A stretch of DNA of 64,000 nucleotides from Abditibacteriaceae bacterium (GCA_031372065.1 JANMKN010000015.1:1683-65682), one strand, 5' to 3'; positions 15,370 to 44,691 are shown, counted from the first letter of the stretch. Translations and numbers: made by a program. The notes: a model not told the origin generated them from the letters alone.

Positions 15370-16104
15370 TCAAGCCACTTCAAGAAATTGATTCAACCAC
15401 GGCGCCGGTTTGGTGTAGCGCAGCGAGAGCGGTTTTGTTGTGACTTCATTGGCCGCCACTTCGGGCTTGGGATTGCCGTGAAACACCAAGATTTTGGTGT
15501 CCGGCGGGCGCCGGGGCGCTTTGAACAGCGAAAGCGGAAACGGCTGCAAGCAGTGTCGCTTGAAACTGCGGCACCAGCTTTCCGGCCAGTAAGTGGGCGT
15601 GCCAACGTAATGCGTCATCCAATCTTGATCGCAGCGATGATGGGCCGCGATATTTTGCGCGTCGGCGTTAAAACTTTCCAAAATTGCGTGATGCTTGGCG
15701 GCCTCAAAGCGAAACACCGACGAGTTGCCGACCGCGCGGCCTTTGCCATCGCGCAGCCAGTCGCGGATGATGATAAATTCGCCCGCATGCTCGAAAAAGC
15801 AATCAATCGAATCCAGCAGCACCAAATCCAAATCGAGAAACAAAGTCAAACCTGTGAGGCCGGTTTCTGCGGGCGAAAACACGCCCAATTTGCGCCAGCA
15901 ACGTTCGGGGCCTTGCGGCACGTTGACATGGGGCAGCGGCATGATCTCAATATCATCGCGCGCGCCCTCGCCGTTATCTGTGAAGCACACGAAACGATGT
16001 GGCAGCGACAAATGCCGCTTGACCATCGCGCGCAGGCGATTGACATTGGTGGTGTCGTATTTGGCGCCCCATTTCATGCAAATAACGTTGACTTGTTGGT
16101 TCAT
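15370..16104 (-). CDS. Putative GT-A fold glycosyltransferase
   Basis: Start moved to the ATG at 16104 (MNQQVNVICMKWGAKY...). A DxD-like LFLDLDLVLLD is present. Assigned by resemblance to uncharacterised glycosyltransferases, so the call is tentative. Confidence 0.5.
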   Translation of the reverse strand: MNQQVNVICMKWGAKYDTTNVNRLRAMVKRHLSLPHRFVCFTDNGEGARDDIEIMPLPHVNVPQGPERCWRKLGVFSPAETGLTGLTLFLDLDLVLLDSIDCFFEHAGEFIIIRDWLRDGKGRAVGNSSVFRFEAAKHHAILESFNADAQNIAAHHRCDQDWMTHYVGTPTYWPESWCRSFKRHCLQPFPLSLFKAPRRPPDTKILVFHGNPKPEVAANEVTTKPLSLRYTKPAPWLNQFLEVA

Positions 16105-18140: not shown

Positions 18141-18920
18141 TTACCAACTAAAATACCCGCGCCGCATGAGGTCGGCTTCAGTATCGAATTGCGCTTGGGG
18201 CGCGTGTTTATTGATGGCGGTTAATATAGCAGCAAGTCCTTTCACGCCATATTCTTGCGCTTCGATAGGCAGATATGTATGTTTCTCTTCATGAAAGTAG
18301 TAAATGTGGAGATTTCTAAATCCGGGAGATTCCACGCGGTCAATCGCGGAATAGTGAATCTCCATAGCAGATTCTTCTAATTTTTTGCCTTTGCACTTGT
18401 ATCGGTGCTTGATAATCAATCTATCCTGATTTAGAACGATCCATTGTCTATAACTTGCCAATAATCGCCAAGACTTAAAGGCAAAGAAGCAACTGAAACA
18501 AATCCAAGCGGCATACATAATGAAGTCTGTGATGTCTCTTGCGTTTTGAAGACAAAGAACTAAAAACGATAGTGTCAGAATGACACTTGGAAAGTAATAC
18601 CTATCCCGAAAACCTATCCCTTTGATAATCTGTGACCAGTCCTTTTGTGGTGTAGGGACATACTGAAATTTATTTTGAGCTACTAAGTGCCAACGCCAAA
18701 ATGCTGCACACAATGTGAGAAACATCAGCCCAATGCACCAATTTTTCAATGGTGTAGGCATCAGCCACCAGAAATAACAGCAAGTAATTTCAAACCAAAA
18801 GGCGTTCCACTGAATATCAGTGCGTGCTCGTTGCACAGATTTCTCCGCCAGTTTGTTTTCTTCGTCGCTGAATTCCGGTTCTTGCGGCTTGCTGATTACG
18901 GCTGTATTCATTTTTGACAT
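18141..18920 (-). CDS. Multi-pass membrane protein of unknown function, AT-rich gene
   Basis: 259-aa ORF with about four hydrophobic helices and a soluble C-terminal domain. No family recognised. Confidence 0.5.
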   Translation of the reverse strand: MSKMNTAVISKPQEPEFSDEENKLAEKSVQRARTDIQWNAFWFEITCCYFWWLMPTPLKNWCIGLMFLTLCAAFWRWHLVAQNKFQYVPTPQKDWSQIIKGIGFRDRYYFPSVILTLSFLVLCLQNARDITDFIMYAAWICFSCFFAFKSWRLLASYRQWIVLNQDRLIIKHRYKCKGKKLEESAMEIHYSAIDRVESPGFRNLHIYYFHEEKHTYLPIEAQEYGVKGLAAILTAINKHAPQAQFDTEADLMRRGYFSW

Positions 18921-27791: not shown

Positions 27792-27844
27792 GGCTCGCTC
27801 TTACAAATTAACTTTTTATTCGGTTTTCGCCCAAATTTAGGTTG

Positions 27845-27870
27845 TTTATAACATAGGTTTTTGTTATAAA
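27845..27870. promoter_or_regulatory. Inverted repeat TTTATAACA-N8-TGTTATAAA in an AT-rich upstream region
   Basis: Perfect 9-bp arms about 150 bp upstream of the 28017 start. This is a candidate operator; no experimental support. Confidence 0.3.
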
Positions 27871-28016
27871 TGAACTGTCTTGCGAAGTATTGTTTGCGTT
27901 TCAGACTTTATCCTCACGTTTTGTGTAGTAAATTGCCTCAGCTTGTTTTTCGTTGAGTGACCCTTAATCGAATCTTATGATTCGTTACTTCGGGAATTTT
28001 TTTTAGGAGATTCGTC

Positions 28017-28748
28017 ATGGCTAATCAGAAGATTGCGGATGCAGCACACGCTGCTATGCACGATGCCAGTGTGGAATCGAAGCCCGGTTTCTGCTCGCGT
28101 TTTGTGCGTCAAGTTGTCTCAAAGGTATATGGGGATAAGTATCAAGGCTTGTTTGGTGCTTCCGCTATAGACACCGGCAGGAATTTTGAGCATGCAGGAT
28201 TGGACGCCAGCGCAACGCAAAGCAGTCAATTGGAAGTTGGCGACATCTTGTTCAAGATGCAAGGCAGCGGCGGATTTGGACACGTTGGAATTTATGTGGG
28301 CGAAAAAGGTGTGGCCTCGAATAGCTCCACGCCGTTGGGACGCCTTTCGGGTGCCAAAGGCTATCGCACCTTGGGGCAATGGGGACAATGGCAACTGGTA
28401 GGAAGAATTCCGGGTGAATCGCCTGCGGCCAGTGATCAACCGCTGATTTACCATTTAGTGCTGAACGGCGTTAAAGTGGCTGATATGCCAGTGCATAACG
28501 GGCAGGCGCTATGTCCAGCACGCCTGTGGGCAAATGCTATGCATCTCAACATTGACTGGCACGAGGAAACACACCGCGTGCTATTCAATGGCGTAGAAGT
28601 TTCTGAAAACGCCACGATGATTCAGGATCATGCCTATTTGCCGATCCGTGTCTTAGTTGATGCCGCCAACAAAGTTGTCGGCGATAATGCTAAGGTGCGC
28701 ATAACCACTTTTGATGCTGGTAAGCATCTGGTCGAAGTGGGTAAATAA
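28017..28748 (+). CDS. NlpC/P60-like papain-fold hydrolase fused to a copper-amine-oxidase-N (stalk)-like domain; no signal peptide
   Basis: TAGGAGA RBS. A candidate catalytic Cys (GFCSRFV) and His (GFGHVGIYVG) sit in NlpC/P60 order. The C-terminal LNGVKVADMP...AYLPIRVLVDA resembles the stalk domain. Confidence 0.6.
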   Translation: MANQKIADAAHAAMHDASVESKPGFCSRFVRQVVSKVYGDKYQGLFGASAIDTGRNFEHAGLDASATQSSQLEVGDILFKMQGSGGFGHVGIYVGEKGVASNSSTPLGRLSGAKGYRTLGQWGQWQLVGRIPGESPAASDQPLIYHLVLNGVKVADMPVHNGQALCPARLWANAMHLNIDWHEETHRVLFNGVEVSENATMIQDHAYLPIRVLVDAANKVVGDNAKVRITTFDAGKHLVEVGK

Positions 28749-28755
28749 CTAAAAA

Positions 28756-28808
28756 TTTCAATCCTTGTAATACAATGTAGTTTTTGTGTTGTATTACAAG
28801 GATTGAAA
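28756..28808 (+). terminator. Perfect 20-bp-stem hairpin
   Basis: TTTCAATCCTTGTAATACAA, a 13-nt loop, then TTGTATTACAAGGATTGAAA, directly after the stop at 28748. Confidence 0.75.
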
Positions 28809-28917
28809 CTCATTTCTACAGAGTTTGTTCTTCAGCCGTCAACCGCTTTTATTTTCTCGCTTTCATCTTGCCGCTTTCCTATTGAAATCGGGATTATTTC
28901 GTGAAATGGAGTATCCA

Positions 28918-31578
28918 ATGACTACGAAATTTTTCGATGTTACTGTAAAAACGCAGCTTGTTGTATTGACCGTTTTGCTTTGCCTGTCTATTTTTAGTCG
29001 TTCTGCTTTTTGTGCCGCTAAAAGCACGCCGAGCTTACCACCCAAATCTCAGCAGATCGAGAAACTCTCTGTGGCCTCTTTGCGGCAGGGCGAAAAACTC
29101 ACCATCACTTTCACGGGGGCAGTGCTTCCTCAGCAAATTTTGATTGGTGGGAAGCCCGCAGCGTTTGTTGAACAACCAAAAGCCGCCACAAAAGCGATAA
29201 CAGTGCGGTCTGCTATGGATACGCCTGTTGGTAAGCATAATGTTTTGGTCTTGAAGGCCAAGGAAAACGCGGCAAAGCCTTCTATTAAGCCACAAACAAT
29301 CTCTATAATTTCTGTAAAACCCACACCCCAAATTGATAAAATATCTCCTTCTTCTACGCAAGCAGGGGCCTCCCTACAACCGGGAGAAACACTGGCAATT
29401 ACTTTTACAGAAGGCTTCTTACCCCAGCGGGTTTTGGTCGGAGGTAAAGCCGCAGCGTTTATTGACAGACCAGTGGCTCCAAGCAAAGACATCGTGGTGC
29501 GCCTTTCTCTCGACACGCCAATGGGAGATCATGATGTTGTCGTCGAAGGCAGAGACTCTCAAACCGGTAAAACGCTGAAGATTAGGCCAAAAGTTGTATG
29601 GATTATGCCTTTGGTTACCGGCATCAGGTCAGCCAATAGCATCAGCAAAACGCTGGCTGAAAATGAAATCGTAGCCGGTCAACGCGCTGATATACAATTG
29701 AGTGATAATTTTCCGGTTTATTTAGCACCGTTGCTGGGTGTTAAAGTGGACGGCGTTCTTGTTCCGGCCAAACCTTCTGGAAAAACATTGCAAATTACGA
29801 TACCTGCTGAATTATCACGAGGCGATCATCAAGTGCAGGTTGAAGTGGGAAGTTCGGTATGGCAAAGCCGAATCTCAGCCCATGTTTATCCTAATCCCGG
29901 TCAGGCGACTGTAACTGATATAATGCCTCGACTTCTGCGACCCGGAACACGCATGACGATTACCGGACAGAATTTAATAGCGCCGGCGGATCAAGTTACG
30001 GTGCTGGTCGGCGGCGTCGCGGCCCGTGTATTCAATACTGATCCGGCTGGGACAAAGATCTATGCCGAAGTCATGTCCGATGAAAGACATTTGGCAAAGA
30101 CTCCCTTGGGGCAGCAAGGGGACGCCGAAAGCAATGGGCAGCAAGCGCGCAACAAGATTCTACCGGGTGGTGATGTAGAAGTGCGCTTATGGGGTATGCC
30201 TGTTTCTCTGCCGACAGATTTTTCAGTCAAAATTGAGCGTTCTGTCGGCACTCGCGATACGCTGCTGCTTATTGCCGCCGCGTTGGGTGTTGTGGTAGCT
30301 ATTGCGATGCTGATTTCTTGGTTTTACAGTTTTCTTGCCCAGGGCAATAGAAACTGGCTGGAGGCCCTCTTACTGGAACCAGAAACCCAAACTTACAGCC
30401 TTTCAAGAGCGCAATTTTTCTGGTGGTCTATCATTGTGTCCTTTGGTTACATTTTCCTTTTTGTAGGCCGTGGTTTCATTGAAGAAAAATGGGAATTTCC
30501 ATCGCTTCAAGGCTTTGGTATTACATTCCTTATCAGCTTGGGCACTTTAGTTCTCGCACAGGCAACCAGCAATGCAAAAGGCACCAAAGGCGCTGGCTCT
30601 ATGCATCCCTCACCTGCCGATTTAGTTGTGCATGGCGGCGTGCTGGCACCGGAGCGAGTTCAGCAAGTGGCTTGGACTATCATCACGGGAACAGGCTTTC
30701 TTGTTATTCTGATTAAAACCTATGCCGGGCGCACGCAACTGCCCATCATACCCGATGAATTGCTTTACTTAATGGGCATGAGTTCAGTTGGTTATCTGGC
30801 GGGCAAAGCCGTGCGCAAACCAGGGCCGAATATCAAAGAAGTAGCTGTGGAAGATAACGCAAACGCTAATGGCGTTCGCTTGAAAATTTCTGGCATACAA
30901 CTGGGCAAAAATGCTGTCGTTTTGTTGGATGACAACGAGCAAGCCTCGGACTTAGTCTCTATGGCAGAAAGTGACCCTACCTCACCCGAATTTGCGAATG
31001 CCTTGTTCGTAAATCTGCCGCCAGATAATAGAATGCATATCAATTCCACTAAAGATTGGTTCGGCGCGCGGCGCACCATAACCGTGCGGAATGGAGATAT
31101 GCAACACGCCGAATGGTGGACGGCTCCGGCAATCGTAACGGTAGAACCGCTGAATGTAGATACGGCAACCGGTCAATTGGCTCTAAATGTCCAAACCGAA
31201 CATGTGGATAGCGATGCTCATTGGGAAGCAGAAGGAGCTAATTTAATCAGCTTTGTGCAGCAACCAGACGACCATCGGATGTGGCTTCTCACGCTCCAAC
31301 CCGGCGGCAGTGACGGCACGACACAACCCTACGACAAATTGATTGTGGTCAATCGAGATAATCATAGAGGGACATTCAGTCGAAATGCGCCTTTAACTCC
31401 TTCAAACCCTACCCCTCCCGAAACAACAAAGGGCGTGGATAAGGTAACAGTAAATCAAGGTGCCAACGACGGTTCAGATACAACCACCGTGAACACCCCA
31501 GATGGACCCGATGACACAACTGGTGACGCAACCGGTGACGCAAGCCCAGATGAAGGGCAAGCACGGCCATCGGATTAA
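28918..31578 (+). CDS. Large IPT/TIG-repeat protein with a central multi-pass membrane block and acidic Pro/Thr-rich tail
   Basis: GGAG lies 6 nt before the ATG at 28918 (alternative starts at 28825 and 28906). After a signal/anchor come repeated IPT-like units (LTITFTGAVLPQQILIGGKPAAFVEQP; LAITFTEGFLPQRVLVGGKAAAFIDRP; MTITGQNLIAPADQVTVLVGGVAARVF), then about five hydrophobic helices and a further Ig-like unit (VRLKISGIQLGKNAVVLLDD). Confidence 0.65.
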   Translation: MTTKFFDVTVKTQLVVLTVLLCLSIFSRSAFCAAKSTPSLPPKSQQIEKLSVASLRQGEKLTITFTGAVLPQQILIGGKPAAFVEQPKAATKAITVRSAMDTPVGKHNVLVLKAKENAAKPSIKPQTISIISVKPTPQIDKISPSSTQAGASLQPGETLAITFTEGFLPQRVLVGGKAAAFIDRPVAPSKDIVVRLSLDTPMGDHDVVVEGRDSQTGKTLKIRPKVVWIMPLVTGIRSANSISKTLAENEIVAGQRADIQLSDNFPVYLAPLLGVKVDGVLVPAKPSGKTLQITIPAELSRGDHQVQVEVGSSVWQSRISAHVYPNPGQATVTDIMPRLLRPGTRMTITGQNLIAPADQVTVLVGGVAARVFNTDPAGTKIYAEVMSDERHLAKTPLGQQGDAESNGQQARNKILPGGDVEVRLWGMPVSLPTDFSVKIERSVGTRDTLLLIAAALGVVVAIAMLISWFYSFLAQGNRNWLEALLLEPETQTYSLSRAQFFWWSIIVSFGYIFLFVGRGFIEEKWEFPSLQGFGITFLISLGTLVLAQATSNAKGTKGAGSMHPSPADLVVHGGVLAPERVQQVAWTIITGTGFLVILIKTYAGRTQLPIIPDELLYLMGMSSVGYLAGKAVRKPGPNIKEVAVEDNANANGVRLKISGIQLGKNAVVLLDDNEQASDLVSMAESDPTSPEFANALFVNLPPDNRMHINSTKDWFGARRTITVRNGDMQHAEWWTAPAIVTVEPLNVDTATGQLALNVQTEHVDSDAHWEAEGANLISFVQQPDDHRMWLLTLQPGGSDGTTQPYDKLIVVNRDNHRGTFSRNAPLTPSNPTPPETTKGVDKVTVNQGANDGSDTTTVNTPDGPDDTTGDATGDASPDEGQARPSD

Positions 31579-31684
31579 TAATAGGATTTTGCTACTTATG
31601 ATTGTTTGGGAAAGGAATGAAGCTGAGTTTGATGCGCCAATGTGAGAGAGGCGAGATTTGGGCAAATAGACTGTGCAAACTGGT

Positions 31685-32200
31685 ATGAGAGATATCTACG
31701 AATTTACCTTGTTCTTGATCATTGCGACATTATCAATTATCATCATGAAACTGATTTGCGCAAAACAACCCGCGAGCAAAGAAAGGCGTTACATCGTTGC
31801 TCTCGCTCCTCCGATTGTTATGGTTCTGGGAGTTCATCTCATCGGAATCATCCCCACTACAGTTATCCTAAGAGTGATAAGTTATCTCAATCGGAATAGC
31901 ATTCCTCTGGAGATAGCGGAGGTGCTTATCCCATTTGCATTACTAATAGGGGGTGTTGTTGCAGGAGTGTTTTGGAGCAAGAAAATTATACATAAAATTA
32001 TTTTCTTGTCGTCAAAATCCAAAGCGCAATCGAATGCCACTACACCCACCCTCCCCTTGCATAATCATATCTTTATTTCTTCCTCGATTCTGACTTTATT
32101 GCTCTGCCTAATACTTGTGGAAAACTTCGTGGAAGCTAATTGTTTTTCGTTAGGGTTAATTGTTGGCGTGGGCATAGTATCACTGCTGCTTGAAGATTAA
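31685..32200 (+). CDS. Small multi-pass membrane protein, AT-rich
   Basis: Four or five hydrophobic helices. No family recognised. Start uncertain (GTG at 31673 or ATG at 31685). Confidence 0.45.
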   Translation: MRDIYEFTLFLIIATLSIIIMKLICAKQPASKERRYIVALAPPIVMVLGVHLIGIIPTTVILRVISYLNRNSIPLEIAEVLIPFALLIGGVVAGVFWSKKIIHKIIFLSSKSKAQSNATTPTLPLHNHIFISSSILTLLLCLILVENFVEANCFSLGLIVGVGIVSLLLED

Positions 32201-32219: not shown

Positions 32220-32648
32220 TCATTCAATTTGCCGATAAAACGTCCAACCATAAACGATGACTAAATAAGTCCAGAACAGCGCGAACGCGAAATGGGCCAT
32301 CGTCTCCAATTTTTTGCCGCGCCACAACGACGCATCATAAAAGAAGAATTGCACAAGCCAGCGGCACAGCCAGAAAAACGCGATGGCGCCCGCCACATAA
32401 CGCCCCAGAATGGTTTTTTCGAGCAAAGAATTGGTGCCAAATAACGACAGCGCTCCGATAAAGCCAATCACCAACGTGACGAAAAAATTATGCACATAAA
32501 ACATCTGCCGATTGAAGGGCGAAAGCCGCGATAATTCTTCTTTCCAGTTGAAACGCTTTTCAAAAAAGATATGAGCAAACGCCAAAACGAGCAGCGCAGC
32601 GCCCGCTAATTTGAGGTGAAGTGGCAGCGAAAAAAGCGCGTTCGTCAT
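32220..32648 (-). CDS. Four-helix membrane protein of unknown function
   Basis: 142 aa. Its ATG directly abuts the TAA of the upstream enolase-like gene (TAAATG). Confidence 0.55.
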   Translation of the reverse strand: MTNALFSLPLHLKLAGAALLVLAFAHIFFEKRFNWKEELSRLSPFNRQMFYVHNFFVTLVIGFIGALSLFGTNSLLEKTILGRYVAGAIAFFWLCRWLVQFFFYDASLWRGKKLETMAHFAFALFWTYLVIVYGWTFYRQIE

Positions 32649-34100
32649 TTAAAATGTCGCCGCGTCGAATTGATCCAACGCACGGCACGCATCTAAATCG
32701 GGCCATACCGGAGTGCCCAAACCGGGCATTTGATGCAACGCCGCCACATCAATTTCTCCGTTTGTGATTTGCAAGCGCGCCAAATTATTTTCCTCTGTAT
32801 AAAGTTGTGGCAAGGCGGCGACGGCCTCGTTTTGCTTGTCGCGGCTCAAATGCGAGAGTCCGCGAAAATAATGATGGCCGTTACGTTCGGCGTGCGAAAT
32901 TCCAAGCGTCGAAAGCGCCACTAAATCCTGCTGCAAAGCCACGATGCCGATGTTGGTTAAATCTTCGGCAGATAAAATCGCGCGCCGTCCGGCAGCTTTT
33001 TCTTGTTGCACGCGCGCTAAATTCGCCACGCTTTTGAAGGTGTTTTTGCAGTTCTTGTGACTGGTGCCGCTGTAGCCCAAAGCCAAAGCGTGCCCGAATG
33101 AATCAAGCGCATCATCGGCTTCATCAATGATGACCGGGAACTGCTTTGCAACGCGCGCTAATTCGCCGCAACGCGCGGCATCCAACGCATAAGCGCGTGC
33201 CAAAGGCTGCTCGACAAATAGTAGTGAGAAAGCCATTCTCCGCAAAGAGAGGCGCTGCGAAATTTGTTCGACTAAGGGCACAACTTGCTCAAAACTTTCG
33301 TATTGCTCGTTGCCATCCAAAGTGCAAACGTAGTTGGCATTGGGCATCGTTTCGTCCAAAACTGCCGCGATATTTTCAAGGCGCGCGATGTCGTGTTCCA
33401 ACTGGTTGCAAACCTTGATTTTAAAATAGCGCACGCCATAAAAACGAATCACGTCATCCAAACTCTGCGGCAAACCATCGCCCAGTTTTTCGTCGCCGTG
33501 AATTTCGGAATTCCGAATCGGATCGGATAAACCAACCGTGTGCCGCGCGAAGATTTTCTTTCGCGGCGCGGTTGGCAAAATATCGCGCACATTCAGATTT
33601 TTAAAAGACGCATCGAAGGCTTCCAACTCCACGCCTGCCGCGTTGCTTTTGAGATATTGAAAAAATGATAAACCGCACAATTTCGCCGCTGCATCGTTGA
33701 CAGCGCGCTCCAGGAGCGACGGGCCGAAACCCGCCAATAATTTCGGCAAATACGCCTGCGCCGCTTTTTGATGCACTTCGTGAGAAACCTGCCACCACAA
33801 GCGAAACGGCGTCGCAAATTCACAATTCTGCGCTGCTTCTGCCGCCCAACGAATCACCTGAATTTGGTCGCGCAATTCCTGCGCGTAATCTTTTTCCGGC
33901 GCTTTGTCGAACCATTTTGGCGGCAAATTATCCGATGCGATGCCACGCGCTACCGCGCCTTTTTCGTCGCGAATCTGCGCCACCACATACAAATGCGGAC
34001 AGCGCTCCAACTTCGCCGAGCCATAGCGAAAGGGCATTCGCGTTTGCACGCTTTGCCAGAAAAATTTAATGCTCTCGACTTTGATTTTAAGGAGATTCAT
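32649..34100 (-). CDS. Enolase-superfamily (mandelate racemase / muconate lactonising enzyme-like) protein
   Basis: The KxK motif FKIKV and acidic ligand candidates LDGNEQY, VEQPL and IIDEAD appear in the canonical order. At 483 aa it is longer than typical family members. Confidence 0.6.
   Translation of the reverse strand: MNLLKIKVESIKFFWQSVQTRMPFRYGSAKLERCPHLYVVAQIRDEKGAVARGIASDNLPPKWFDKAPEKDYAQELRDQIQVIRWAAEAAQNCEFATPFRLWWQVSHEVHQKAAQAYLPKLLAGFGPSLLERAVNDAAAKLCGLSFFQYLKSNAAGVELEAFDASFKNLNVRDILPTAPRKKIFARHTVGLSDPIRNSEIHGDEKLGDGLPQSLDDVIRFYGVRYFKIKVCNQLEHDIARLENIAAVLDETMPNANYVCTLDGNEQYESFEQVVPLVEQISQRLSLRRMAFSLLFVEQPLARAYALDAARCGELARVAKQFPVIIDEADDALDSFGHALALGYSGTSHKNCKNTFKSVANLARVQQEKAAGRRAILSAEDLTNIGIVALQQDLVALSTLGISHAERNGHHYFRGLSHLSRDKQNEAVAALPQLYTEENNLARLQITNGEIDVAALHQMPGLGTPVWPDLDACRALDQFDAATF
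34060..34091. repeat. Direct repeat copy 1 (32 nt), covering codons 4-13 of the enolase-like gene
   Basis: AAAAATTTAATGCTCTCGACTTTGATTTTAAG matches 39566-39597 at 28 of 32 positions in the same orientation. Confidence 0.8.
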
Positions 34101-34116
34101 CTGTGGTTGAAGATTG

Positions 34117-35781
34117 TTATTTCACTCCTGCTAATTGCAAAAAGTCATCGTGTGAGAGGCCGCGAATTTCATTTTCGTCGGCGTTATGCACATCGTTATC
34201 CACGATTTGCGCGAAAAGTTCGCGCTTGCCGCGCAGAATTTCGTCCACGCGCTCTTCGATGGTTTCCAGCATGACGTAGCGATAAACATGAACCGGGCGC
34301 GTTTGGCCGGGGCGATGGGCGCGGTCTTCGGCTTGCGTTTCGGTGGCAGGATTCCACCAGCGGTCAAAATGAAAAACATACGACGCGCTTTGTAAATTGA
34401 GGCCCACGCCGCCCGCGCGTAGCGAGACAATCAAAAGTGGCGGGCCGTCTTGCGTCGCGAATTCATCCAAGGCGCGTTGGCGTGCGACGCTGTCCATATC
34501 GCCGGTGAAAAGCAGCGGATTCCACTGCGATAATTCGCGCCGCAAGCGCTTCGCACCGAAGTTCTCGTTGGTAAATTGCGTGAAAATGAGCGCGCGTTCG
34601 CCGCTTTCGATGATGTCGGGCAGGCGTTCGCGGAGGTCATCTAACTTCGAGGAAAAAGTTGTGCTGCCCGGCGCAAAATTGCAGATTTGCTGAAGACGCG
34701 TCAGGTGCGCTAAAACGCCGTCGAAACGCAGTTCGCGGGCTGCGATGGCCGCGCTCCATTCTTCGCTGGCGCTGCTTGTTGAATCGTCGTAAGCAGCGCG
34801 TTGTTCTGTCGTGAGTGGCAACGGCAACGTGGTGACGATTTTCGGCGGCAAATCGGGCAAAACCTCGGCTTTGCGACGGCGCAATTGATGTTGTGAGAGC
34901 AAAATGCGCAAGCGTGGTGCATCGGGGAAAATCGTATTTTTCGCGGTCACAAATTCGAGAATCGAAGCGGCGTCATCAATGTGATTTTCCAGCGGCGTGC
35001 CAGTTAAAGCCCACGAACGTCGGCGCGGCAAAGCCTTGCATACCTGCGCGACGGCACTGTCGCGGTTTTTGATGCGCTGCGCTTCATCCAGCGCCACCAC
35101 GTCCCAGCCGCCGCGCGTGGGCAGTTGGTTCCAGTCCGGATTGCCTTGTAAAATCGCTTCCCAATCGGCGCGCAGAGTTTCGTAGGAAACCACCGTCAAA
35201 TGCGCCTGATAATTCCATTGCCAGCGCCGTAATGTCGGTGCGCCGCCGATGACCATGACGTGCAATTCCGGCGTCCATTGCGCCGCCGCGCGCCGCCATT
35301 GTTCCAGCAAACTGGCCGGCGCAACAATCAGTGCGCGTTGAATTTGGCGCCGATGCAATAGCACGCGCAAAGCGGCTAAAGTTTGTATCGTTTTGCCCAA
35401 ACCCATCTCGTCGCCCAGCAAAAGATGGCGCGCTTTGAGCAGCGAACGCACGCCGCTTTGCTGAAAACCAAATAACGCGTGCGGCCAATCAAGCGGCCCG
35501 TTTTCGCGCAGCAGCATTTCCGGCGCCGCTTGCAAAAGCGCCGCAAATTTCCAGCGCAAGCCATCGTCGGGCGGGGCAGTTTTCGTTTCGTCGTTTTCGA
35601 TGTCCTCGTCTGGCGATTCTGTGGTTCCCACGGAAGGCGGCGCGCTGAAATTTAATTGCACATTGTAGGTGCGCGCTTTCCATTGCCGAACATGGCCGAG
35701 TTGCGAAGTTGCAGCAGATTGCGGCGGCGTTCCGATGCGCCGCGCCGGTTGTTCGTCGTGCCACTGCCACCAAGTAGTCAT
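34117..35781 (-). CDS. SNF2-family helicase/translocase (cassette gene E)
   Basis: Motifs GDEMGLGKT (I), LDEAQRIKN (II), LTGTPLEN (III), SLRAGGVGLNLQ (V) and QAEDRAHRPGQ (VI). About 100 aa of acidic N-terminal extension. The start overlaps the stop of gene D (ATGA). Confidence 0.9.
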   Translation of the reverse strand: MTTWWQWHDEQPARRIGTPPQSAATSQLGHVRQWKARTYNVQLNFSAPPSVGTTESPDEDIENDETKTAPPDDGLRWKFAALLQAAPEMLLRENGPLDWPHALFGFQQSGVRSLLKARHLLLGDEMGLGKTIQTLAALRVLLHRRQIQRALIVAPASLLEQWRRAAAQWTPELHVMVIGGAPTLRRWQWNYQAHLTVVSYETLRADWEAILQGNPDWNQLPTRGGWDVVALDEAQRIKNRDSAVAQVCKALPRRRSWALTGTPLENHIDDAASILEFVTAKNTIFPDAPRLRILLSQHQLRRRKAEVLPDLPPKIVTTLPLPLTTEQRAAYDDSTSSASEEWSAAIAARELRFDGVLAHLTRLQQICNFAPGSTTFSSKLDDLRERLPDIIESGERALIFTQFTNENFGAKRLRRELSQWNPLLFTGDMDSVARQRALDEFATQDGPPLLIVSLRAGGVGLNLQSASYVFHFDRWWNPATETQAEDRAHRPGQTRPVHVYRYVMLETIEERVDEILRGKRELFAQIVDNDVHNADENEIRGLSHDDFLQLAGVK

Positions 35782-36338
35782 GCTTCTGTTAAAGCTGCCT
35801 CCAACGCGCGTTCGGCGCGCTCGAAAGGCTCCAAAATGAGGCCGCGCCCGGCCAATTTTTCAAACAATTCGGCGGCGGCTTCGAGAGGTTCTTGCGGCGT
35901 CCATAGCACATCCACTTCGCCCGCTTCGCCGTTGGCATCGAATGTCATTATGGGCTGCGCGATTTCTCTATCGGACGCTAAATTTTCGTGTAAAGCGCCC
36001 ACGCGCGCGATAGGAATTTCTAAGAGTAATTGGCCTTCTGGCCCAAATAAACCTGGCGCAATGTCTGCCGCGCGATAAAACAACAGCGACGGTGCCAATT
36101 GCGCCGCTTGAAACAAGGTGGCGCACAAACGCCGCGCCGCTGCGTGTGGTTTGTCGCGTGCGCGCCACAAATCGTCGCGCAAGAGTTCCAGACGATTGAA
36201 AACGAATTCCAATGGTTCTCCTCGCGCGTTAAGCAACAAAAGCGCGCCCGCCACGAAATCATCCCCTTCGCGCGACACAACTAAAAATGCCGCGACGCCT
36301 AATTCTTCGATGCTTTCGTTATCGTGAAAAGGAATCAT
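35778..36338 (-). CDS. Hypothetical protein (cassette gene D), translationally coupled to the SNF2 gene
   Basis: 186-aa ORF with normal composition. The ATGA overlap with gene E supports expression. No family recognised. Confidence 0.6.
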   Translation of the reverse strand: MIPFHDNESIEELGVAAFLVVSREGDDFVAGALLLLNARGEPLEFVFNRLELLRDDLWRARDKPHAAARRLCATLFQAAQLAPSLLFYRAADIAPGLFGPEGQLLLEIPIARVGALHENLASDREIAQPIMTFDANGEAGEVDVLWTPQEPLEAAAELFEKLAGRGLILEPFERAERALEAALTEA

Positions 36339-36452
36339 TTTAAATTTTGCAAAATAGGAACGCGGAGGCTTGCCCTATACGGGAATGACACGGTTTTTGT
36401 AGGTTCAGATAAGTGTTTAACCCGTCGCTTACGCTCAGGGTTCTTTGCATCG

Positions 36453-37733
36453 CTAAAGCGTTATTTCTGAATCGTCGCTTGGTTTTTCACTTTGCAAATC
36501 AGTGTCTTCTTCGTAGGAAATTTGCAGAGCTTCAACGACAATATCGGCTTCGATGCCATAAAGACGGCGCAAATCCCACGCGTTAATCCACGAGCGCAAA
36601 TATTGGCGTAGGCCGGTGCTAAGAGAGTATTCGCGCCCTTCGTTTTGCGGCGGCGCTTCCCAATGATAAGCGACGCTATAAAGTTCACGCGCCCGTTCGC
36701 CGATGGCCGCCACGTTTTCCTTGGTTGGTGGGCGCAGGTCTATCGCGTGGCGTTCGATGGCTTTCATGCCGCTTTCGGCGATGCTCATAAGCGGCGCATC
36801 GGGCGTGTTTTCGAGACGTGCCGGAATCGCGTGCAAATCGTCTTTACGTCCGCGCAAAACCTGACTGGAATAATCTTTGGTGATCGTGAACACCGCGCCA
36901 AGGCCCGGCGTGCCGCCTTGTGTGGAAACGTTTTTATCCAATCCCATCAACTGCGCGAGATGGGCATAAGCGCGTCCGCGCTGACGCGGGCTATAACGCG
37001 AGATCATTTCGGTTTCGTCCAGCAAAATAATCCAGCCGTTGTAGCCCGCCGAGCGGAAAAACCGCGCCAAAAATTCAAAGCGCTGCAAAAACTGACCTTT
37101 GATAGGCTTGCTAACCCGCGCCACCGGTTCGCGGATTTCTTTAAGGGCAAATTTTAGGTCGCCCGCCAGCATAGGGTTGCCTGTCCATTCGGCCAAAACG
37201 CGCTCTTGCAAGGCTTCATCGGTGTGCTTTTCAAAAACGCGCAACGTCAAAGCCAAACGCGGATCAAGACCCGGCGTGTGGCGCGCAAAATCGAAAAACT
37301 GCTGATAATGTGGCGCGCTGTCCGAGCGCCAGCCATGCGCGATTTCGGCGAGTGCTGGGCCGGAAAGCTGCGGCGCCACAGCGGCTTCGACGCACGCTTT
37401 ATAAACCTTACCCAAATCGTGCAGCGGCGTTTCTTTGTTGAGAACGATTTGCGAAACCACGAAATTCGCTTCCAACGCCAGATGGCGCATGGCTTCGAGC
37501 CAGTGCGATTTTCCGGCGCCGAAATCGGCTTCGAGCAAGAGGCCGGGCAGAGCTTTCAATGCGGGATTATCCCAGCGAGCGAGGATGTTTTCATGGAGCG
37601 CTTCAAATTTCTCGCGCACATCGCTTTGGTGCGGCTCTAAAAAACGCACCACATCGCGGTTGGGCACGCCGGCACGGAGCGCTTCAATCGCGCGCCGTGC
37701 TTCGATGGTGGATAAGGCATTAGAAGTAGGCAT
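36453..37733 (-). CDS. P-loop ATPase of the DUF2791 / BrxD-like type (cassette gene C)
   Basis: Walker A LEADFGAGKSHW and Walker B GWIILLDETE. The N-terminal ARRAIEALRAGVPNRDVV segment resembles BREX-associated BrxD/PglY-type ATPases; this is recognition from memory, not a search. Confidence 0.75.
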   Translation of the reverse strand: MPTSNALSTIEARRAIEALRAGVPNRDVVRFLEPHQSDVREKFEALHENILARWDNPALKALPGLLLEADFGAGKSHWLEAMRHLALEANFVVSQIVLNKETPLHDLGKVYKACVEAAVAPQLSGPALAEIAHGWRSDSAPHYQQFFDFARHTPGLDPRLALTLRVFEKHTDEALQERVLAEWTGNPMLAGDLKFALKEIREPVARVSKPIKGQFLQRFEFLARFFRSAGYNGWIILLDETEMISRYSPRQRGRAYAHLAQLMGLDKNVSTQGGTPGLGAVFTITKDYSSQVLRGRKDDLHAIPARLENTPDAPLMSIAESGMKAIERHAIDLRPPTKENVAAIGERARELYSVAYHWEAPPQNEGREYSLSTGLRQYLRSWINAWDLRRLYGIEADIVVEALQISYEEDTDLQSEKPSDDSEITL

Positions 37734-37774
37734 GAGTTTGAATCAAAAAATAGAGAACGCAATTTGCGTGCTAT

Positions 37775-38713
37775 TTAAGCAATTTGAACCAGCGCATTTA
37801 ACGGATTAGCGCGGCGGCGGTCGTGAACATCTTCGACGATGCGCATTTTGAGCGCGGTGTAGTTATCCACGCCGCGTTTGACATCGTTTAGCAGCGCAGG
37901 CGCGGCCACGGCGACAAGCAGAAAATGGCTCGTTTCGTCGGTGTCGTCAATAAACTGGCGCAGCACTTCATAGACATCAAGCGCTGTGCCGCGCGAATAA
38001 CGCACCGGCGCCGCGCCGGGCAAAACAGTGGCGGTGACGGCGTTTAAATCCAGCAAAAGCGTTAGCCCGCTGTGCCCAGTTTCACGCAGCCACAAGGCCA
38101 AACTCGAAAGCAGCAGGCGCGCGTTATGGCGCGCGATTTTTCCGAAAATTTGCACGCGTTTGAGCGCCGTGAGATTATATTTTTCGCCGCACAGCCATGA
38201 TTTAATGGTGCTGGCATCGGTGGGCGCCACATTTTGCGGATTGATTTGGCCGCTGCAAAGCATCGCCATGGCAATGCGAAATTCTTTGTTGAAACGCGCA
38301 TCTTTTAGTAAATCGTTGGCGATCCAGCGTTGTGCTTCGGCCATCACATCGGTGGGCCGCAAACCGCGCGACGCGGCGCAGTCATCCAGCGAAGGCAAAC
38401 CGCTTTCGGGCAAAGCGTAACCTTGCGCGGCAAAGCGCGTGCGCAGCCAATGCACAGCCAATGCGTCCCAATCAATCTGTCGCGCGACGGCGAAAAATAT
38501 CTGGTCAATCATGTAAACGCGCGTTTGGCAGGCGTCCACACGCGCCACAACGAGATTTTGCGCCGTCGCTGTTTGCGCCACTTGGTTTAAAATATCCGCG
38601 CGGCGTTCGGGCGCAGCCACGGCAATTTTTACCGCCGCGCCGCCGCCCGGCACAAAGTCGTTGATGTATTCCTTATTCAGTAATTTGAGCCATTCGTCCA
38701 GAGAAACTTGCAT
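37775..38713 (-). CDS. Hypothetical protein, possibly a degenerate P-loop-fold partner (cassette gene B)
   Basis: Start placed at the ATG at 38713, which is preceded by AAGGA. GGGAAVKIAVAAP stands where a Walker A would be, and a hydrophobic-Asp strand (GLTLLLDLNAV) follows later. No confident family. Confidence 0.6.
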   Translation of the reverse strand: MQVSLDEWLKLLNKEYINDFVPGGGAAVKIAVAAPERRADILNQVAQTATAQNLVVARVDACQTRVYMIDQIFFAVARQIDWDALAVHWLRTRFAAQGYALPESGLPSLDDCAASRGLRPTDVMAEAQRWIANDLLKDARFNKEFRIAMAMLCSGQINPQNVAPTDASTIKSWLCGEKYNLTALKRVQIFGKIARHNARLLLSSLALWLRETGHSGLTLLLDLNAVTATVLPGAAPVRYSRGTALDVYEVLRQFIDDTDETSHFLLVAVAAPALLNDVKRGVDNYTALKMRIVEDVHDRRRANPLNALVQIA

Positions 38714-38723
38714 GAAAATCCTT

Positions 38724-39497
38724 TCACTGCGGCGGCGTAAATTTGATGGTGGAATATTCTTTTTCGGCGCCGTCGCGCGTGACAAAATGCAAACGTTTGC
38801 CTTTAGCACCTTCGCGGCTGGAAGTGCTGGAAGGCAAACTCAAGCGATAGCCCCGTTTCGTTTCGAAAATGCCACTGGTATCAAGAAAATACACATCGCG
38901 CGTGAAATCAAGCAGCGTATAATCCTTGGCCGCGCCGGGCAAAAGCGTCAGCACTTTATAAATGTCGGGCAAAGGCCGATCAATGTAATCTTCGCTTTTG
39001 GCGCCCGCGCGCAAGAGTTCGTAGGCTTCAAAAAGCGTTTCAATAAACTGGCTCGATTTGGCTTTGGGTTCTTGCGCCTGCACTTTGCGCAGCAGGGCGG
39101 CTAATACTGCTGGGCGCAAATTAAATTCGAGTTTTTTATCAATGCGCACCGCGCTAATTTCCGCTTCGGGGCGCAGTAAAACCGGATAACAGAAAATAAC
39201 GCCTTCGCGCTCGGAAAGGCGCACACCGGCATTTTGCGCTGCGTTTTGCAATTCTGCCGCGAAATCGTTAGCCAAATAAGCAGCGGCATCAAAATTAAGC
39301 GGTGCACAGTCGGCGGCTTTGGCGGCGGCGTTTTCGCCCGCATTTTGCGCCACCTGACGCAGTTTTTCCAAATCGCGCAAATTGCCCAGCGCGACGGCTT
39401 TTTCCAATTTTGCTATCGCTGCCGCCTGCTTTTTCGCCGCGTCGTGCCATGCGCGCACGGCCTGTTCGTAGTCGCTCAAAACCGGCTCTAATTTCAT
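38724..39497 (-). CDS. Hypothetical protein (cassette gene A, first gene)
   Basis: 257-aa ORF with AAGGA before its ATG. It has an Ala-rich helical N-terminal half and a mixed C-terminal half. No family recognised. Confidence 0.6.
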   Translation of the reverse strand: MKLEPVLSDYEQAVRAWHDAAKKQAAAIAKLEKAVALGNLRDLEKLRQVAQNAGENAAAKAADCAPLNFDAAAYLANDFAAELQNAAQNAGVRLSEREGVIFCYPVLLRPEAEISAVRIDKKLEFNLRPAVLAALLRKVQAQEPKAKSSQFIETLFEAYELLRAGAKSEDYIDRPLPDIYKVLTLLPGAAKDYTLLDFTRDVYFLDTSGIFETKRGYRLSLPSSTSSREGAKGKRLHFVTRDGAEKEYSTIKFTPPQ

Positions 39498-39537
39498 GTC
39501 CCTGTCCTTTTCAAGATGCCCTTTTATTTTGACATAA

Positions 39538-39600
39538 TCACGGCGCTGGTTTCAGATCATTGATTAAAAATTCGACGCTCTCGACTTTGATTCTAAGCAT
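39538..39600 (-). pseudogene. 20-codon remnant resembling the 5' end of the enolase-like gene
   Basis: Translates to MLRIKVESVEFLINDLKPAP*, compared with the enolase-like start MNLLKIKVESIKFF. The nucleotide match is the 32-nt direct repeat. Confidence 0.5.
39566..39597. repeat. Direct repeat copy 2 (32 nt)
   Basis: AAAAATTCGACGCTCTCGACTTTGATTCTAAG is 28/32 identical to 34060-34091. Confidence 0.8.
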
Positions 39601-39641
39601 AGTATGAGTGTGATGAGTAGCGTCAAGAATGGGTGCGCCAG

Positions 39642-40184
39642 CTAATAGATGAGAGACCATTTTTCATGAAGAAAAATAATCGAATAATCATTTTTCATTG
39701 ATGAAACTTTATCCAGCGGAGCTTGAATCAATGCCATTCGGTCAATCGGATATTCATCAAGCCACAAATAAACTACATCACCTTGATGGGCGCCTCCATA
39801 AATATGGAAAACCCCAGCGAACTGTGATGATGGTAGAGAATTTCCTGTTTTAACCTGTGTTGCCATTTTGTCCAAAGAGGCTTGTGTCAATTTGAAAGAT
39901 AAGCGCAAAGGCCAATGCGTCAAAAGAATCGAGGCAGTGAATGTGCAGCACAAAAGAATTATCAACCAAGTTTTCTTAGTCGCTTGGTGAGATTCACTGC
40001 ACTTAGGCGGCCCCCAAGAGTAAGGACGCGGTGCATAAGATAGTCCTACGCCAATTGTAGCAACACATAACAAGGCGACTATGACTAAAAAGACGAAAAT
40101 CGGATGAATCGCCGTCATAGATAGAAGAAATACCAAAACTGAGATGGCAATGAAGGGGATTCTTCTCCACGAAATCTTAGCCAT
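39642..40184 (-). CDS. Membrane protein of unknown function, AT-rich gene
   Basis: 180 aa with three hydrophobic helices followed by a soluble tail. No family recognised. Confidence 0.5.
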   Translation of the reverse strand: MAKISWRRIPFIAISVLVFLLSMTAIHPIFVFLVIVALLCVATIGVGLSYAPRPYSWGPPKCSESHQATKKTWLIILLCCTFTASILLTHWPLRLSFKLTQASLDKMATQVKTGNSLPSSQFAGVFHIYGGAHQGDVVYLWLDEYPIDRMALIQAPLDKVSSMKNDYSIIFLHEKWSLIY

Positions 40185-40269
40185 GAAATCTTTGACTATT
40201 CAACTTTAGCTCCGTTTTAAACAAAGCAAAATGCCCCACAAAAAGCGTTCCATTTGTGGGGCATTACTT

Positions 40270-42624
40270 TTACTTCTTCACCACGCGGGCACCGAATAAA
40301 CCTCCGGCCATCGCGCCGGGATGCGCTTGCAGCTTCACGGTGATTTTGTCGCCGCCTTCGGGCAATGGAAAAGCCATGTCGAAAAATTGGTTGGGCTTGT
40401 TGTTGTCGAGGCGAATCGTGCCGACATTTTTGCCGTTGATTAACACATCGAAGACGCGATTGCCGCTTTCGCTGCCCCAGAAAGTGAGAATCAAATCGGA
40501 GGCGGCTGCGGGCGTTTTCATGTCAAAGGAAAACCAGCCGCCGTCGCGTGCATCGCGCCATTTGCGGTTGTTGAAATCGCCCGCAGTGGATTTATCGCTT
40601 TGCACATTGTGGTCGCGTTCGGCTTGCATTTCGCCGGGCGAGAAAACATCAACGGTGCGCGCGGCCAGTTCTTTTTGGCGTTCTTCTGCGCTGCGATATT
40701 GCGCTTCGCGCGCTTGCCATTCCTGCGGCGTGAAAACATCGAAATAAATCGAATAACGCTCGTGACGCGTTTTGTAAAACGGCGCGAATTGCACATCGTT
40801 TGGTTTGCCTGTGCCGCTGGTTTTGAAGACAGCGACCTCGCCTTTGACGGGTTTGAGCCAGCTATCAAGCGGCTTGCTTTCGGTAATTAAAACCGGCACT
40901 TGCGGCAAATCGCCGCCTACATCGGCAGCTTGTGGGCCGTAAGTGCGCTTATCGGTGATGCCTTGTGTGCCGAGTTCACCCGCCAAAACTGTCGGGCCGT
41001 AAAACAAGGCGATACGCCTCGGATTATCGGGCATCGCTTCCTGTCGCAATTCCAAAGGCAAGGCATAGGTCACTTTGTCGCCTGCTTTCCACGAGCGTGT
41101 GACGAGCGCGTAACCGTTTTCGGTTTGGAACGCTTGCTTTTTGCCGTTGATTTTCAGCGTTGGCGAATGCGAAAGCCATGCCGGAATACGCAACCGAAAA
41201 GTGAGATTTTGCGGCTGTCCGCCGAAAGTGAAATGCACGGCGCCATCTTGCGGATATTTGGTTTCTTGCTTCAGCGTTAAACCTTTGTCCTTCCAATTCA
41301 ACTGCGAGGGGATGAACAAATTGACCCACAAATTATGCTCGTCGTGGAAGTAAATCGAATCGCTATATTTGGTGTGATTTTCGATGCCGGAGCCAACACA
41401 GCACCAAAACGAATCGAACGGCTCAGAGTAGCTTTGAAAATGACCGGGCAAGAGCGAAACGAAGTAAGTCACCATGCCGGTTTTTGGGTCTTGCGAGGCC
41501 AAAATGTGATTGTATAAGGCGCGTTCGTAATAGTCGGCGTAGTGGCCTTGCGGCTGCCACTCAAAGAGGTGCCGCGTCAGTTTCAGCATATTGTAGGTGT
41601 TGCACGTTTCGGCGGTGGCGGGGCCAAGTCGGTCATTCAAATGGTCGGGCGCGCCCAAATGCTCGCCAATGCTGTTGCCGCCCATCGCATACGAATGATG
41701 GCCGGTAATTTCCTGCCAAAAATACTTGGAAATAGTGCCGTATTTGTCATCGCCGGTCAATTCATAAAGCCGCGCCGCGCCGATGATTTTGGGAATTTGC
41801 GTATTGGAATGTTTGCCCGCAAGTTCGTCGCGCTGCGCGGCTAACGGGTCTAAAATCGCGCGGTGGTAAAACTTCTTCGATAAATCCAAATATTTCGTTT
41901 CGCCGGTGATGGCGTAAAGCTGCGCGAGGCTTTCATTCATGCCGCCGTGCTCGCAAGCTAACATTCGCTGCCATTGGTCGTCGTTTAGATTTTTGGTGAC
42001 TTCTACGGCCCAATCGCCGAGTTTGGCAACGACATCTTTAGCTTTTTGATTGCCCGCCAAATTGTGAGCATCAAGTAGGCCCGCGAAGAGTTTGTGTTGC
42101 GTATACCACGGCACCCACGCGCCGTTTAAATCGAAGCCCGCCGAGCGAATGTTACCACCCGAAACTTCCGTCCACAGTTTTTGTGCATCGGGAAAACCGC
42201 CGACGTAATTTTTCAAAACACCGTCGTATTTCGCTTGACAGAGCGCCAATTCGTCCACGATGTAATCCACGCGCTGAAGGAATTTTTCGTCGCCCGTCGC
42301 AGCATATTGCAGCGCGCAGGCCGACAAATAATGGCCTAAGGTGTGTCCCGAAATGCCGCGATTTTCCCATCCGCCATATATCGCGCCTTTAGGCGGCAAA
42401 CCGGCATATTCGCGGAAGCGGCTTAGCAATCGGTCGGGTTCGAGGTCAAGCAGGTATTTTGCGTTGCGCGTTTGGGCATCTTTGAACGGGCTGTCTAAAA
42501 GCTGCACCGCGCTGAGGGCAAAATCCTGCGCCTGCGGCGCGACTTTGGGCGCGACAACATCGCGTGATTGCGCAAAAGCGGTAGAGGAAAGCATGAGTGT
42601 GGCTCCGAGCAGAATGTATTTCAT
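40270..42624 (-). CDS. Glycoside hydrolase family 127 (DUF1680, beta-L-arabinofuranosidase-like)
   Basis: Signal peptide. The GHTLGHYLSA motif and the length and layout are typical of GH127. Confidence 0.8.
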   Translation of the reverse strand: MKYILLGATLMLSSTAFAQSRDVVAPKVAPQAQDFALSAVQLLDSPFKDAQTRNAKYLLDLEPDRLLSRFREYAGLPPKGAIYGGWENRGISGHTLGHYLSACALQYAATGDEKFLQRVDYIVDELALCQAKYDGVLKNYVGGFPDAQKLWTEVSGGNIRSAGFDLNGAWVPWYTQHKLFAGLLDAHNLAGNQKAKDVVAKLGDWAVEVTKNLNDDQWQRMLACEHGGMNESLAQLYAITGETKYLDLSKKFYHRAILDPLAAQRDELAGKHSNTQIPKIIGAARLYELTGDDKYGTISKYFWQEITGHHSYAMGGNSIGEHLGAPDHLNDRLGPATAETCNTYNMLKLTRHLFEWQPQGHYADYYERALYNHILASQDPKTGMVTYFVSLLPGHFQSYSEPFDSFWCCVGSGIENHTKYSDSIYFHDEHNLWVNLFIPSQLNWKDKGLTLKQETKYPQDGAVHFTFGGQPQNLTFRLRIPAWLSHSPTLKINGKKQAFQTENGYALVTRSWKAGDKVTYALPLELRQEAMPDNPRRIALFYGPTVLAGELGTQGITDKRTYGPQAADVGGDLPQVPVLITESKPLDSWLKPVKGEVAVFKTSGTGKPNDVQFAPFYKTRHERYSIYFDVFTPQEWQAREAQYRSAEERQKELAARTVDVFSPGEMQAERDHNVQSDKSTAGDFNNRKWRDARDGGWFSFDMKTPAAASDLILTFWGSESGNRVFDVLINGKNVGTIRLDNNKPNQFFDMAFPLPEGGDKITVKLQAHPGAMAGGLFGARVVKK

Positions 42625-42645
42625 GAGTTAATTTGGGTGGCGCCT

Positions 42646-44594: not shown

Positions 44595-44691
44595 GGAATT
44601 TTATTGGACGCTGCCACGCGTCGCATGAGGCGCCGTCTAAAGTGCCGGTTATACTTTTGAGCGTCCCAGTTTGAATTTTGGAGGATTTTCT

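Follow-up and report, generated by a model that had tools for sequence, protein, structure and literature searches.

The 64,000-nt stretch of DNA analysed here, which comes from an Abditibacteriaceae bacterium (GCA_031372065.1, JANMKN010000015.1:1683-65682) and is referred to below as the window, contains a cassette of five genes, named A to E, lying on the minus strand immediately upstream of a gene for an enolase-superfamily-like protein of 483 amino acids (eno; 32649 to 34100, minus strand). Relatives of this protein carry PF13378, and a weak NCBIfam match to L-Ala-D/L-Glu epimerase was found. The cassette is bracketed by two 32-nt sequences, copy 1 within eno (34060 to 34091, minus strand) and copy 2 upstream of gene A (39566 to 39597). 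An earlier note on this DNA had read this repeat as the trace of a formerly mobile unit that entered at the 5' end of eno. From the comparisons described below we consider it somewhat probable that illegitimate recombination, at a spot of variable gene content, left the repeat behind as a scar.

The repeat pair and the truncated head of eno

A repeat search found the two copies to be identical at 28 of 32 positions (88%), in direct orientation and with a start-to-start spacing of 5506 bp. On the gene (minus) strand copy 1 reads CTT AAA ATC AAA GTC GAG AGC ATT AAA TTT TT, and it covers codons 4-13 (L4 to F13) of the working eno open reading frame (ORF), together with two bases of codon 14 (F14). 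Copy 2 is preceded by an ATG at 39598-39600, with which it forms a stub of 35 nt (39566 to 39600, minus strand), a dead remnant of an eno gene's 5' end. The stub opens a 20-codon ORF, MLRIKVESVEFLINDLKPAP* (39538-39600), whose stop lies 41 nt short of the start of gene A at 39497. A degenerate 32-mer scan of the 64-kb window, allowing up to three mismatches, returned these two sites only, and none of 100 dinucleotide-preserving shuffles yielded a 32-mer match at the same tolerance. Uninterrupted identity between the copies reaches at most 16 nt, in a core (AATCAAAGTCGAGAGC, gene strand) with mismatches on both sides. It is coding sequence and is also conserved in the nearest eno orthologue (locus L001, 84% amino acid identity), whose gene start is the one place outside the window, among the loci fetched, where the core was found. 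The 32-mer is therefore not a generic repeat.

The N-termini of the eno orthologues follow the pattern ML(K)IKVE(S/N)(V/I)EFFWQ, and the working protein, which begins MNL-LKIKVESIKFF, has two residues more than the orthologue consensus ML-KIKVE. In L001 the gene starts ATG TTG AAA ATC AAA GTC GAG AGC GTC GAA TTT TTC TGG. The stub matches this start at 32 of 35 positions (3 differ), whereas copy 1 differs from it at 5 of 32 positions and has CTC where the orthologue has its ATG, the new start of the working gene lying two codons upstream. Over the 32 nt that can be compared, the stub has the orthologue-type ATG and E10, while copy 1 has the derived residues K12 and I11 in addition to the new start; following its ATG, the head of copy 2 keeps to the family pattern L-K/R-I-K-V-E-S-V-E-F. 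These differences are suggestive of two diverged parental alleles. Because it has the canonical start and stands nearer to L001 than copy 1 does, the stub is best read as a contiguous piece of a genuine eno allele that was probably not copied from copy 1, and it is the less derived of the two copies. We also considered the CTC of copy 1 as a replaced ancestral ATG and rejected this, as the orthologues differ in their N-terminal extensions: L171 begins MSLKIKVE and P0010 MDWKIKVE, and L085 starts with TTG.

These results agree with the earlier note in the positions, identity, orientation and spacing of the two copies, in assigning residues 4-13 of the protein to copy 1, and in placing copy 2 within a dead-end ORF of 20 codons upstream of gene A. 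Its view that the second copy duplicates a gene start is borne out by the ATG and the orthologue-like head ML(K/R)IKVESVEF, and the refuting case that it had named, a 32-mer recurring as a generic repeat, was not observed in the window or among the fetched loci.

Homology of the working gene to its relatives ends at 34091, the outer edge of copy 1, in the comparisons with L083 and L084, and at 34088 in the comparison with L001. Between the stop of gene E and the eno start lie 16 nt (junction J1; 34101 to 34116, minus strand), a spacer too short for a separate eno promoter, and within it homology to the cassette relative L172 ends at 34113. On the other side of the cassette homology stops abruptly at 39565/39566 (junction J2, minus strand), 68 nt upstream of gene A.

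The stub makes up the cassette-side end of an AT-rich segment of 724 nt (39553 to 40276, minus strand; GC 0.41 against 0.53 for the window) that is absent from L172 by blastn. In order, the segment contains the stop codon of a GH127 gene, a terminator-like hairpin, an orphan ORF (up180), a promoter-like site, the stub and 13 further bases. The hairpin and its T-run (40231 to 40264, minus strand) begin 6 nt past the GH127 stop, and RNAfold gave -28.9 kcal/mol for the surrounding 76-nt stretch. The ORF up180 (39642 to 40184, minus strand; GC 0.41) would encode a membrane-like protein of 180 amino acids, for which no homologue was found among 5.8 billion proteins or in the viral contigs and phage records searched. 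The promoter-like site is a sigma-70-like consensus match only (TTGACG-16-TACTAT; 39599 to 39626, minus strand) and abuts the stub ATG. The sequence 5' of the stub showed no significant similarity to the promoters of the orthologues.

The neighbourhood in related genomes and the age of the stub

Upstream of the 724-nt segment the window carries a GH127 beta-L-arabinofuranosidase gene (40270 to 42624, minus strand), which is the upstream neighbour of the cassette in L172 and L173 as well. Beyond it, after a polysaccharide deacetylase gene and a GHL15 gene, lies a SASA/GH2_N esterase gene divergent from the cassette (44671 to 47043, plus strand); this gene is orthologous to the one that abuts the cassette in L086/L087 (67-81% amino acid identity by tblastx and tblastn).

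The closest cassette relative, L172, was found through the 90% cluster of gene E, and L173 repeats its arrangement in a second sample. Nucleotide identity between the window and L172 is 81-86% over the cassette and 79% over GH127, with 89% amino acid identity for gene A. In L172 and L173 GH127 is followed directly by the cassette. By blastn, window positions 40277-42633 align with L172 5738-3380 and window positions 38733-39552 with L172 6552-5737, the two flanks of the window-specific segment thus being adjacent in the relative. L173 and L001, the latter with the closest eno orthologue, belong to the same assembly and are found on different contigs, so the cassette and eno are not adjacent there.

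A second and more distant relative, represented by L085 and L086 on one contig (eno 74% amino acid identity), has SASA, the cassette, eno and dn142, a homologue of the 142-aa ORF at 32220-32648 of the window; these four anchors follow one another as they do in the window, with matching orientation. Conservation with the window extends to ~70 nt of intergenic DNA upstream of SASA and to the block upstream of gene A. The interval between cassette and eno contains a GNAT-like gene, DarT-DarG (Macro), Dcm-HATPase-Vsr and a sulfatase, forming a small defence island (L085 58-9730, equal to L086 13947 onwards), and two more genes lie between eno and dn142. Long perfect palindromes or inverted repeats, resembling miniature inverted-repeat transposable elements or repetitive extragenic palindromes, were observed in this relative between SASA and the cassette, downstream of gene E, and a short way upstream of eno (L086 9860-9935 and 15640-15810; L085 9740-9760 with 9918-9936), the first of which is missing from L090. 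As the cassette of the window shares neighbours with both L172 and L085/L086, it was probably resident before the stub formed.

L084 (eno 78% amino acid identity) is syntenic downstream of eno, over window positions 16.8-34.09 kb, and has ClpS and purine genes upstream. The gene upstream of eno differs in each relative examined, being EF-G, NAGLU, ClpS, HicB with a HipA-like gene, or the defence island. The HicB antitoxin and HipA-like genes lie directly upstream of eno at L171 272-1353. On this comparison the region upstream of eno is a variable spot. Within eno, residues 278-300 (33201-33269; patch EQISQRLSLRRMAFSLLFVEQPL) are shared only with P0007/L171, at ~80% amino acid and ~70% nucleotide identity, the values against all other orthologues, including the closest, being 55-70% at the amino acid level. 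The patch indicates an old mosaic or gene-conversion segment and, taken with the variable upstream gene, would fit a locus that exchanges alleles. The cassette and the genes that flank it in the window are both missing from the 80 GTDB loci that carry eno relatives, and exact-protein look-ups of eno and up180, made in search of an empty site, returned the source sample only.

Two further observations concern the window at large. Positions 27800-32200 are absent from the otherwise syntenic L084 and hold genes for an NlpC/P60-like protein of 243 aa, a TIG-domain membrane protein of 917 aa and an AT-rich orphan of 175 aa (GC 0.41); by this comparison there is, across eno-dn142 from the cassette, a further insertion specific to the lineage. 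In a window of GC 0.53, four ORFs have GC of 0.41-0.45 (12291-13403, 18141-18920, 31673-32200 and 39642-40184); one encodes a WD40 protein, the other three lack a Pfam match, and they may be recent acquisitions.

The age of the stub was judged against the divergence between the window and L172. At synonymous sites the proportion of differences (pS) is 0.43-0.55 and the estimated substitutions per site (dS) 0.64-0.99; by part, dS is 0.64-0.81 for the cassette, 0.75-0.95 for eno and 0.99 for GH127. Intergenic DNA inside the cassette (36349 to 36455) is unalignable between the two, and the divergence of the window from L086 is greater still. A neutral stub that predated the L172 split would be expected to differ at ~27-33% of sites, against an observed 4 of 32 relative to copy 1 and 3 of 35 relative to L001, for which the binomial P is ~0.04 to 0.001. 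The stub is probably younger than both the GH127-cassette adjacency seen in L172 and the SASA-cassette-eno order seen in L086, and this is the main argument against its having been created by the arrival of the cassette.

Origin of the repeat

The history that we consider somewhat probable is one in which the space between GH127 and eno could be filled in two alternative ways and a single illegitimate join placed both fillings in a row. Among related genomes the interval would exist in two structural variants, one with GH127, the five-gene cassette and eno (variant Y) and the other with GH127, a terminator, up180, a promoter and eno (variant X). A single recombination between X and Y would have relied at one end on ordinary homology, within GH127 or eno, and at the other on an illegitimate join. 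This join would be J2, connecting codon 12 of the X-allele eno to the point 68 nt upstream of gene A, and the outcome would be both fillings in tandem with the head of the X-allele eno left as the truncated stub. The recipient may have been X or Y, as either fits. If it was X, the event would match the earlier idea of a cassette that entered carrying a copy of the target, with recombination from a relative in place of element mobility. The cassette itself appears from its shared neighbours to be a long-term resident of the neighbourhood and need not have moved by a mechanism of its own.

Several points weigh against this history. No genome was found in which up180 stands immediately before a complete eno, as X would require. 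Sliding-window identity showed no crossover or mosaic step in eno against L001, L083, L084 and L085, and no step in GH127 or the cassette against L172. The dS values of cassette, eno and GH127 overlap and do not settle the direction of transfer, and microhomology at J2 can be read only with the parental sequences. The age argument uses 32-35 nt and assumes neutrality, its P ranging from 0.14 to <0.001 with the assumed rate. In L172, moreover, GH127 has neither its own terminator nor its own stop, and its reading frame runs on into the block upstream of the cassette (...VVKTAP*; L172 5738-5751), so that this junction is no clean empty site and may be a deletion that fused GH127 to the cassette. 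As L172 may have deleted the intervening DNA, the stub-age argument is the only one that speaks against an old stub.

Other origins of the stub have to be weighed against these same data. It might derive from the head of the window's own eno, either as templated filler at the insertion of the up180 segment or by tandem duplication and deletions, with later divergence in place. This would require no donor genome, its source would lie only 5.5 kb off and point the same way, and KVES, present in both copies, is also found in the closest subclade of orthologues. We regard it as unlikely all the same, since the stub has its ATG directly before CTT, as in the orthologues, where copy 1 has CTC, since over four differences in 32 nt the constrained copy is more derived than the unconstrained one, and since the promoter-like sequence 5' of the stub has no counterpart 5' of copy 1; duplication with deletions would also take at least three events. 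An old stub kept by selection as promoter and leader of the cassette, made of a former eno promoter and the 20-codon ORF, would render its preservation uninformative on its age. The sigma-70-like match that abuts the ATG suits this, as does the closing of the ORF at a TGA within the conserved cassette-upstream block, the same TGA that ends GH127 in L172. The cassettes of L172/L173, L086, L088 and L090, on the other hand, are stub-free and have their own conserved upstream motif TTATGTCAnAAT, the -10 element of the match overlaps the ATG, which is probably not transcribed from this promoter, and no Rfam family matches the region, and we see little chance that selection of this kind explains the stub. 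Chance similarity or an assembly artefact is hardly credible. Although the contig behind the window was assembled from a metagenome, identical runs of at most 16 nt are shorter than assembler k-mers and make a chimera of the assembly graph unlikely; both junctions were recovered in independent Logan contigs (L081 and L082, same run), the shuffles produced no match, and copy 2 is in frame behind an ATG and resembles the orthologue starts.

Insertion of the cassette as a mobile element into codon 12 of eno, with a 32-bp target duplication or by attachment-site (att) recombination at the 16-bp core with an element-borne gene head, is in our judgement improbable, although it would explain much of what is seen: direct repeats that bracket the cassette exactly, an identical core set between mismatches, a new in-frame ATG before the downstream copy that keeps the gene intact, and a cassette that recurs as a unit in several unrelated contexts. 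Target-site duplications made by known transposases are usually 2-15 bp, far below 32 bp. As the earlier note had stated, and as far as Pfam can tell, the window has no recombinase; a scan of ~48 ORFs in it matched no integrase, transposase or resolvase family, none was found in the cassette, and the model of gene A has no recombinase-like fold. Terminal inverted repeats were found neither at the ends of the cassette nor at those of the 724-nt segment (scores at chance level). Bracketing direct repeats are absent around the cassette copies in L086 and L088, eno-like sequence is absent from the cassette ends in L086, L088, L090 and L172, and neither the cassette nor relatives of gene A were found in the viral contigs and plasmids searched. 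The four differences in 32 nt, with the dead copy less derived, are not what duplication and neutral decay would leave, and under att recombination the right arm of the stub should be element-derived, yet it is orthologue-like. Since its neighbours are common to L172 and L086, the cassette would be older than the young stub, and insertion then needs either an old stub or independent insertions into the same interval across lineages. A variant in which the cassette integrates site-specifically into the eno head through its own proteins (SNF2 helicase, BrxD-like pair and two proteins without family match), independently of a recombinase, with the 16-bp core as crossover and a replacement gene head as cargo, strikes us as very improbable; if true, it would make the cassette a mobile defence module of a new kind.

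Of the earlier picture of a discrete, formerly mobile unit, the discreteness is supported by the other contexts in which the cassette occurs, whereas the mobility finds no counterpart in a recombinase, inverted repeats or repeats elsewhere. Its proposal that genes A-E entered at the 5' end of eno is not supported as an element insertion, given the probably older shared neighbours; they may have entered together with a linked eno head by recombination from a cassette-bearing relative into a variant that lacked the cassette. The search for an uninterrupted locus that it had suggested yielded no exact empty site, the L172 junction being possibly a deletion.

The five-gene module and comparison with known systems

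All five cassette genes lie on the minus strand. Gene A (38724 to 39497) encodes 257 aa without a family match; its AlphaFold model is confident (pLDDT 88.8), and a structure search gave no meaningful fold match in the PDB and none that is recombinase-like. Gene B (37775 to 38713) encodes a BrxD-like protein of 312 aa counted from the ATG at 38713; the listed ORF, with a GTG start, reaches 38809, and the homologues in L086, L088 and L172 are 312 aa long. Gene C (36453 to 37733) encodes a BrxD/DUF2791-like ATPase of 426 aa with the Walker A motif GAGKSH (PF10923, 5.8e-24; BrxD and SngB in PADLOC). Gene B appears degenerate. Gene D (35778 to 36338; 186 aa) has no family match and is kept after gene C in the closer cassette copies. 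Gene E (34117 to 35781) encodes an SNF2-family helicase of 554 aa with the Pfam domains SNF2-rel_dom and Helicase_C, in which PADLOC recognised a ZorD/DpdE/DrmD-like helicase core, every score being under the family cut-offs. The cassette-proximal upstream region (39498 to 39552, minus strand; TTATGTCAAAATAAAAGGGCA...) is conserved with L086, L090, L088 and L172. The cassette genes have genome-typical GC and GC3, and the window contains no tRNA genes and no Rfam families.

About 200 homologues of gene A were found, mostly labelled Armatimonadota or Abditibacteriota. The order A-B-C-D-E is intact in L088/L089, where it lies between porin and sulfate transporter genes and a GH95 gene; the cassette occupies 10001-15584 in L088, 10001-15623 in L086 and 5785-11328 in L172. 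The L090 cassette has an extra gene between D and E (L090 4251-4601), which belongs to the 23S_rRNA_IVP (four-helix-bundle) family. In the metagenome cassette contigs (L091-L170) A, B and C are invariably together, with D and E in the closer relatives, and none of 80 metagenome cassette loci has eno nearby, nor do the cassettes of L088/L089 and L090. In and around the L088 cassette a palindromic motif, AAAGTACTTTG, possibly regulatory, recurs at 9769-9791, 13183-13205 and 15518-15540 as well as downstream of gene E. By its recurrence the cassette is a discrete conserved module. The A-BrxD-BrxD-D-SNF2 arrangement matches no named PADLOC system and may be an undescribed defence or DNA-surveillance system; one relative has it beside DarTG and Dcm/Vsr, for which reason it is a reasonable candidate for a defence system, and it is a more promising lead than the repeat. 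The stub, for its part, would give a date and a place to a single recombination event in a phylum that has been sampled poorly (Abditibacteriota/Armatimonadota-like), and it suggests that a variable interval with two alternative cargos can stack them rather than swap one for the other. It also advises caution, as direct repeats on either side of accessory genes do not by themselves point to an autonomous mobile element.

Among described defence systems, Shango (SngABC) consists of a TerB-domain protein, an ATPase and a DEAD/DEAH helicase (10.1101/2022.11.11.516204). Genes B and C match SngB weakly (4.9e-11 and 0.002), and no TerB domain was found in gene A or D. The same two genes are BrxD-like at 37-53 bits, against an NCBIfam cut-off of 350, and no PglZ or PglX of BREX was found among the scanned ORFs of the window. 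Compared with BREX type 2, Shango and ZorD/DpdE/DrmD, the cassette scores far under the family cut-offs, has no nuclease domain, and its genes A and D match nothing. As in the core defence hotspots (10.1101/2022.11.11.516204; PMC10250203), what lies upstream of eno changes from relative to relative, with DarTG, Dcm/Vsr, toxin-antitoxin genes and the cassette among it; the hotspot label, however, comes here from a handful of diverged genomes, and the cassette is a candidate defence system only.

The repeat itself recalls several kinds of arrangement. A transposon target-site duplication differs from it in that here the copies match at 28 of 32 positions, inverted repeats and a transposase are lacking, other cassette copies have no repeats and the flanks join directly in L172. 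The attL and attR sites of integrative islands and prophages resemble it in form, with direct repeats that here bracket ~5.5 kb of accessory genes and overlap the end of an intact host gene, but there is no integrase, the repeats are not identical beyond the 16-nt core, the stub arm is orthologue-like and other cassettes lack the fragment. In arrays of Rhs, CDI (contact-dependent inhibition of growth) and type VI secretion system (T6SS) genes, modules arriving at a variable locus leave short remnants of flanking genes, and direct repeats bracket the newer module (PMC5361080). Those remnants are of toxin genes and result from serial displacement, whereas the window has a single remnant, the 5' end of a metabolic gene, beside a helicase/ATPase cassette.

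Homology-facilitated illegitimate recombination (HFIR) has been proposed as the source of orphan remnants in such arrays (PMC5361080) and, according to PMC3240628 and the primary papers cited through PMC5361080, is documented, together with the scars it leaves, for Acinetobacter, Streptococcus pneumoniae and Pseudomonas stutzeri and for conjugation in E. coli. The present case differs in that it comes from comparative genomics alone, with neither parental arrangement seen in full. HFIR is recognised by a truncated gene remnant at a junction without homology, with the intact gene nearby, and the stub at 39566-39600 is such a remnant. The proposed history resembles HFIR in that one side of the exchange would lie in sequence shared by the parents (GH127 or eno), J2 would have been joined without homology with a truncated gene piece at the joint, and foreign or alternative DNA would have been gained without a recombinase of its own. 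A recombination scar of this sort at a variable locus is a known and ordinary kind of event.

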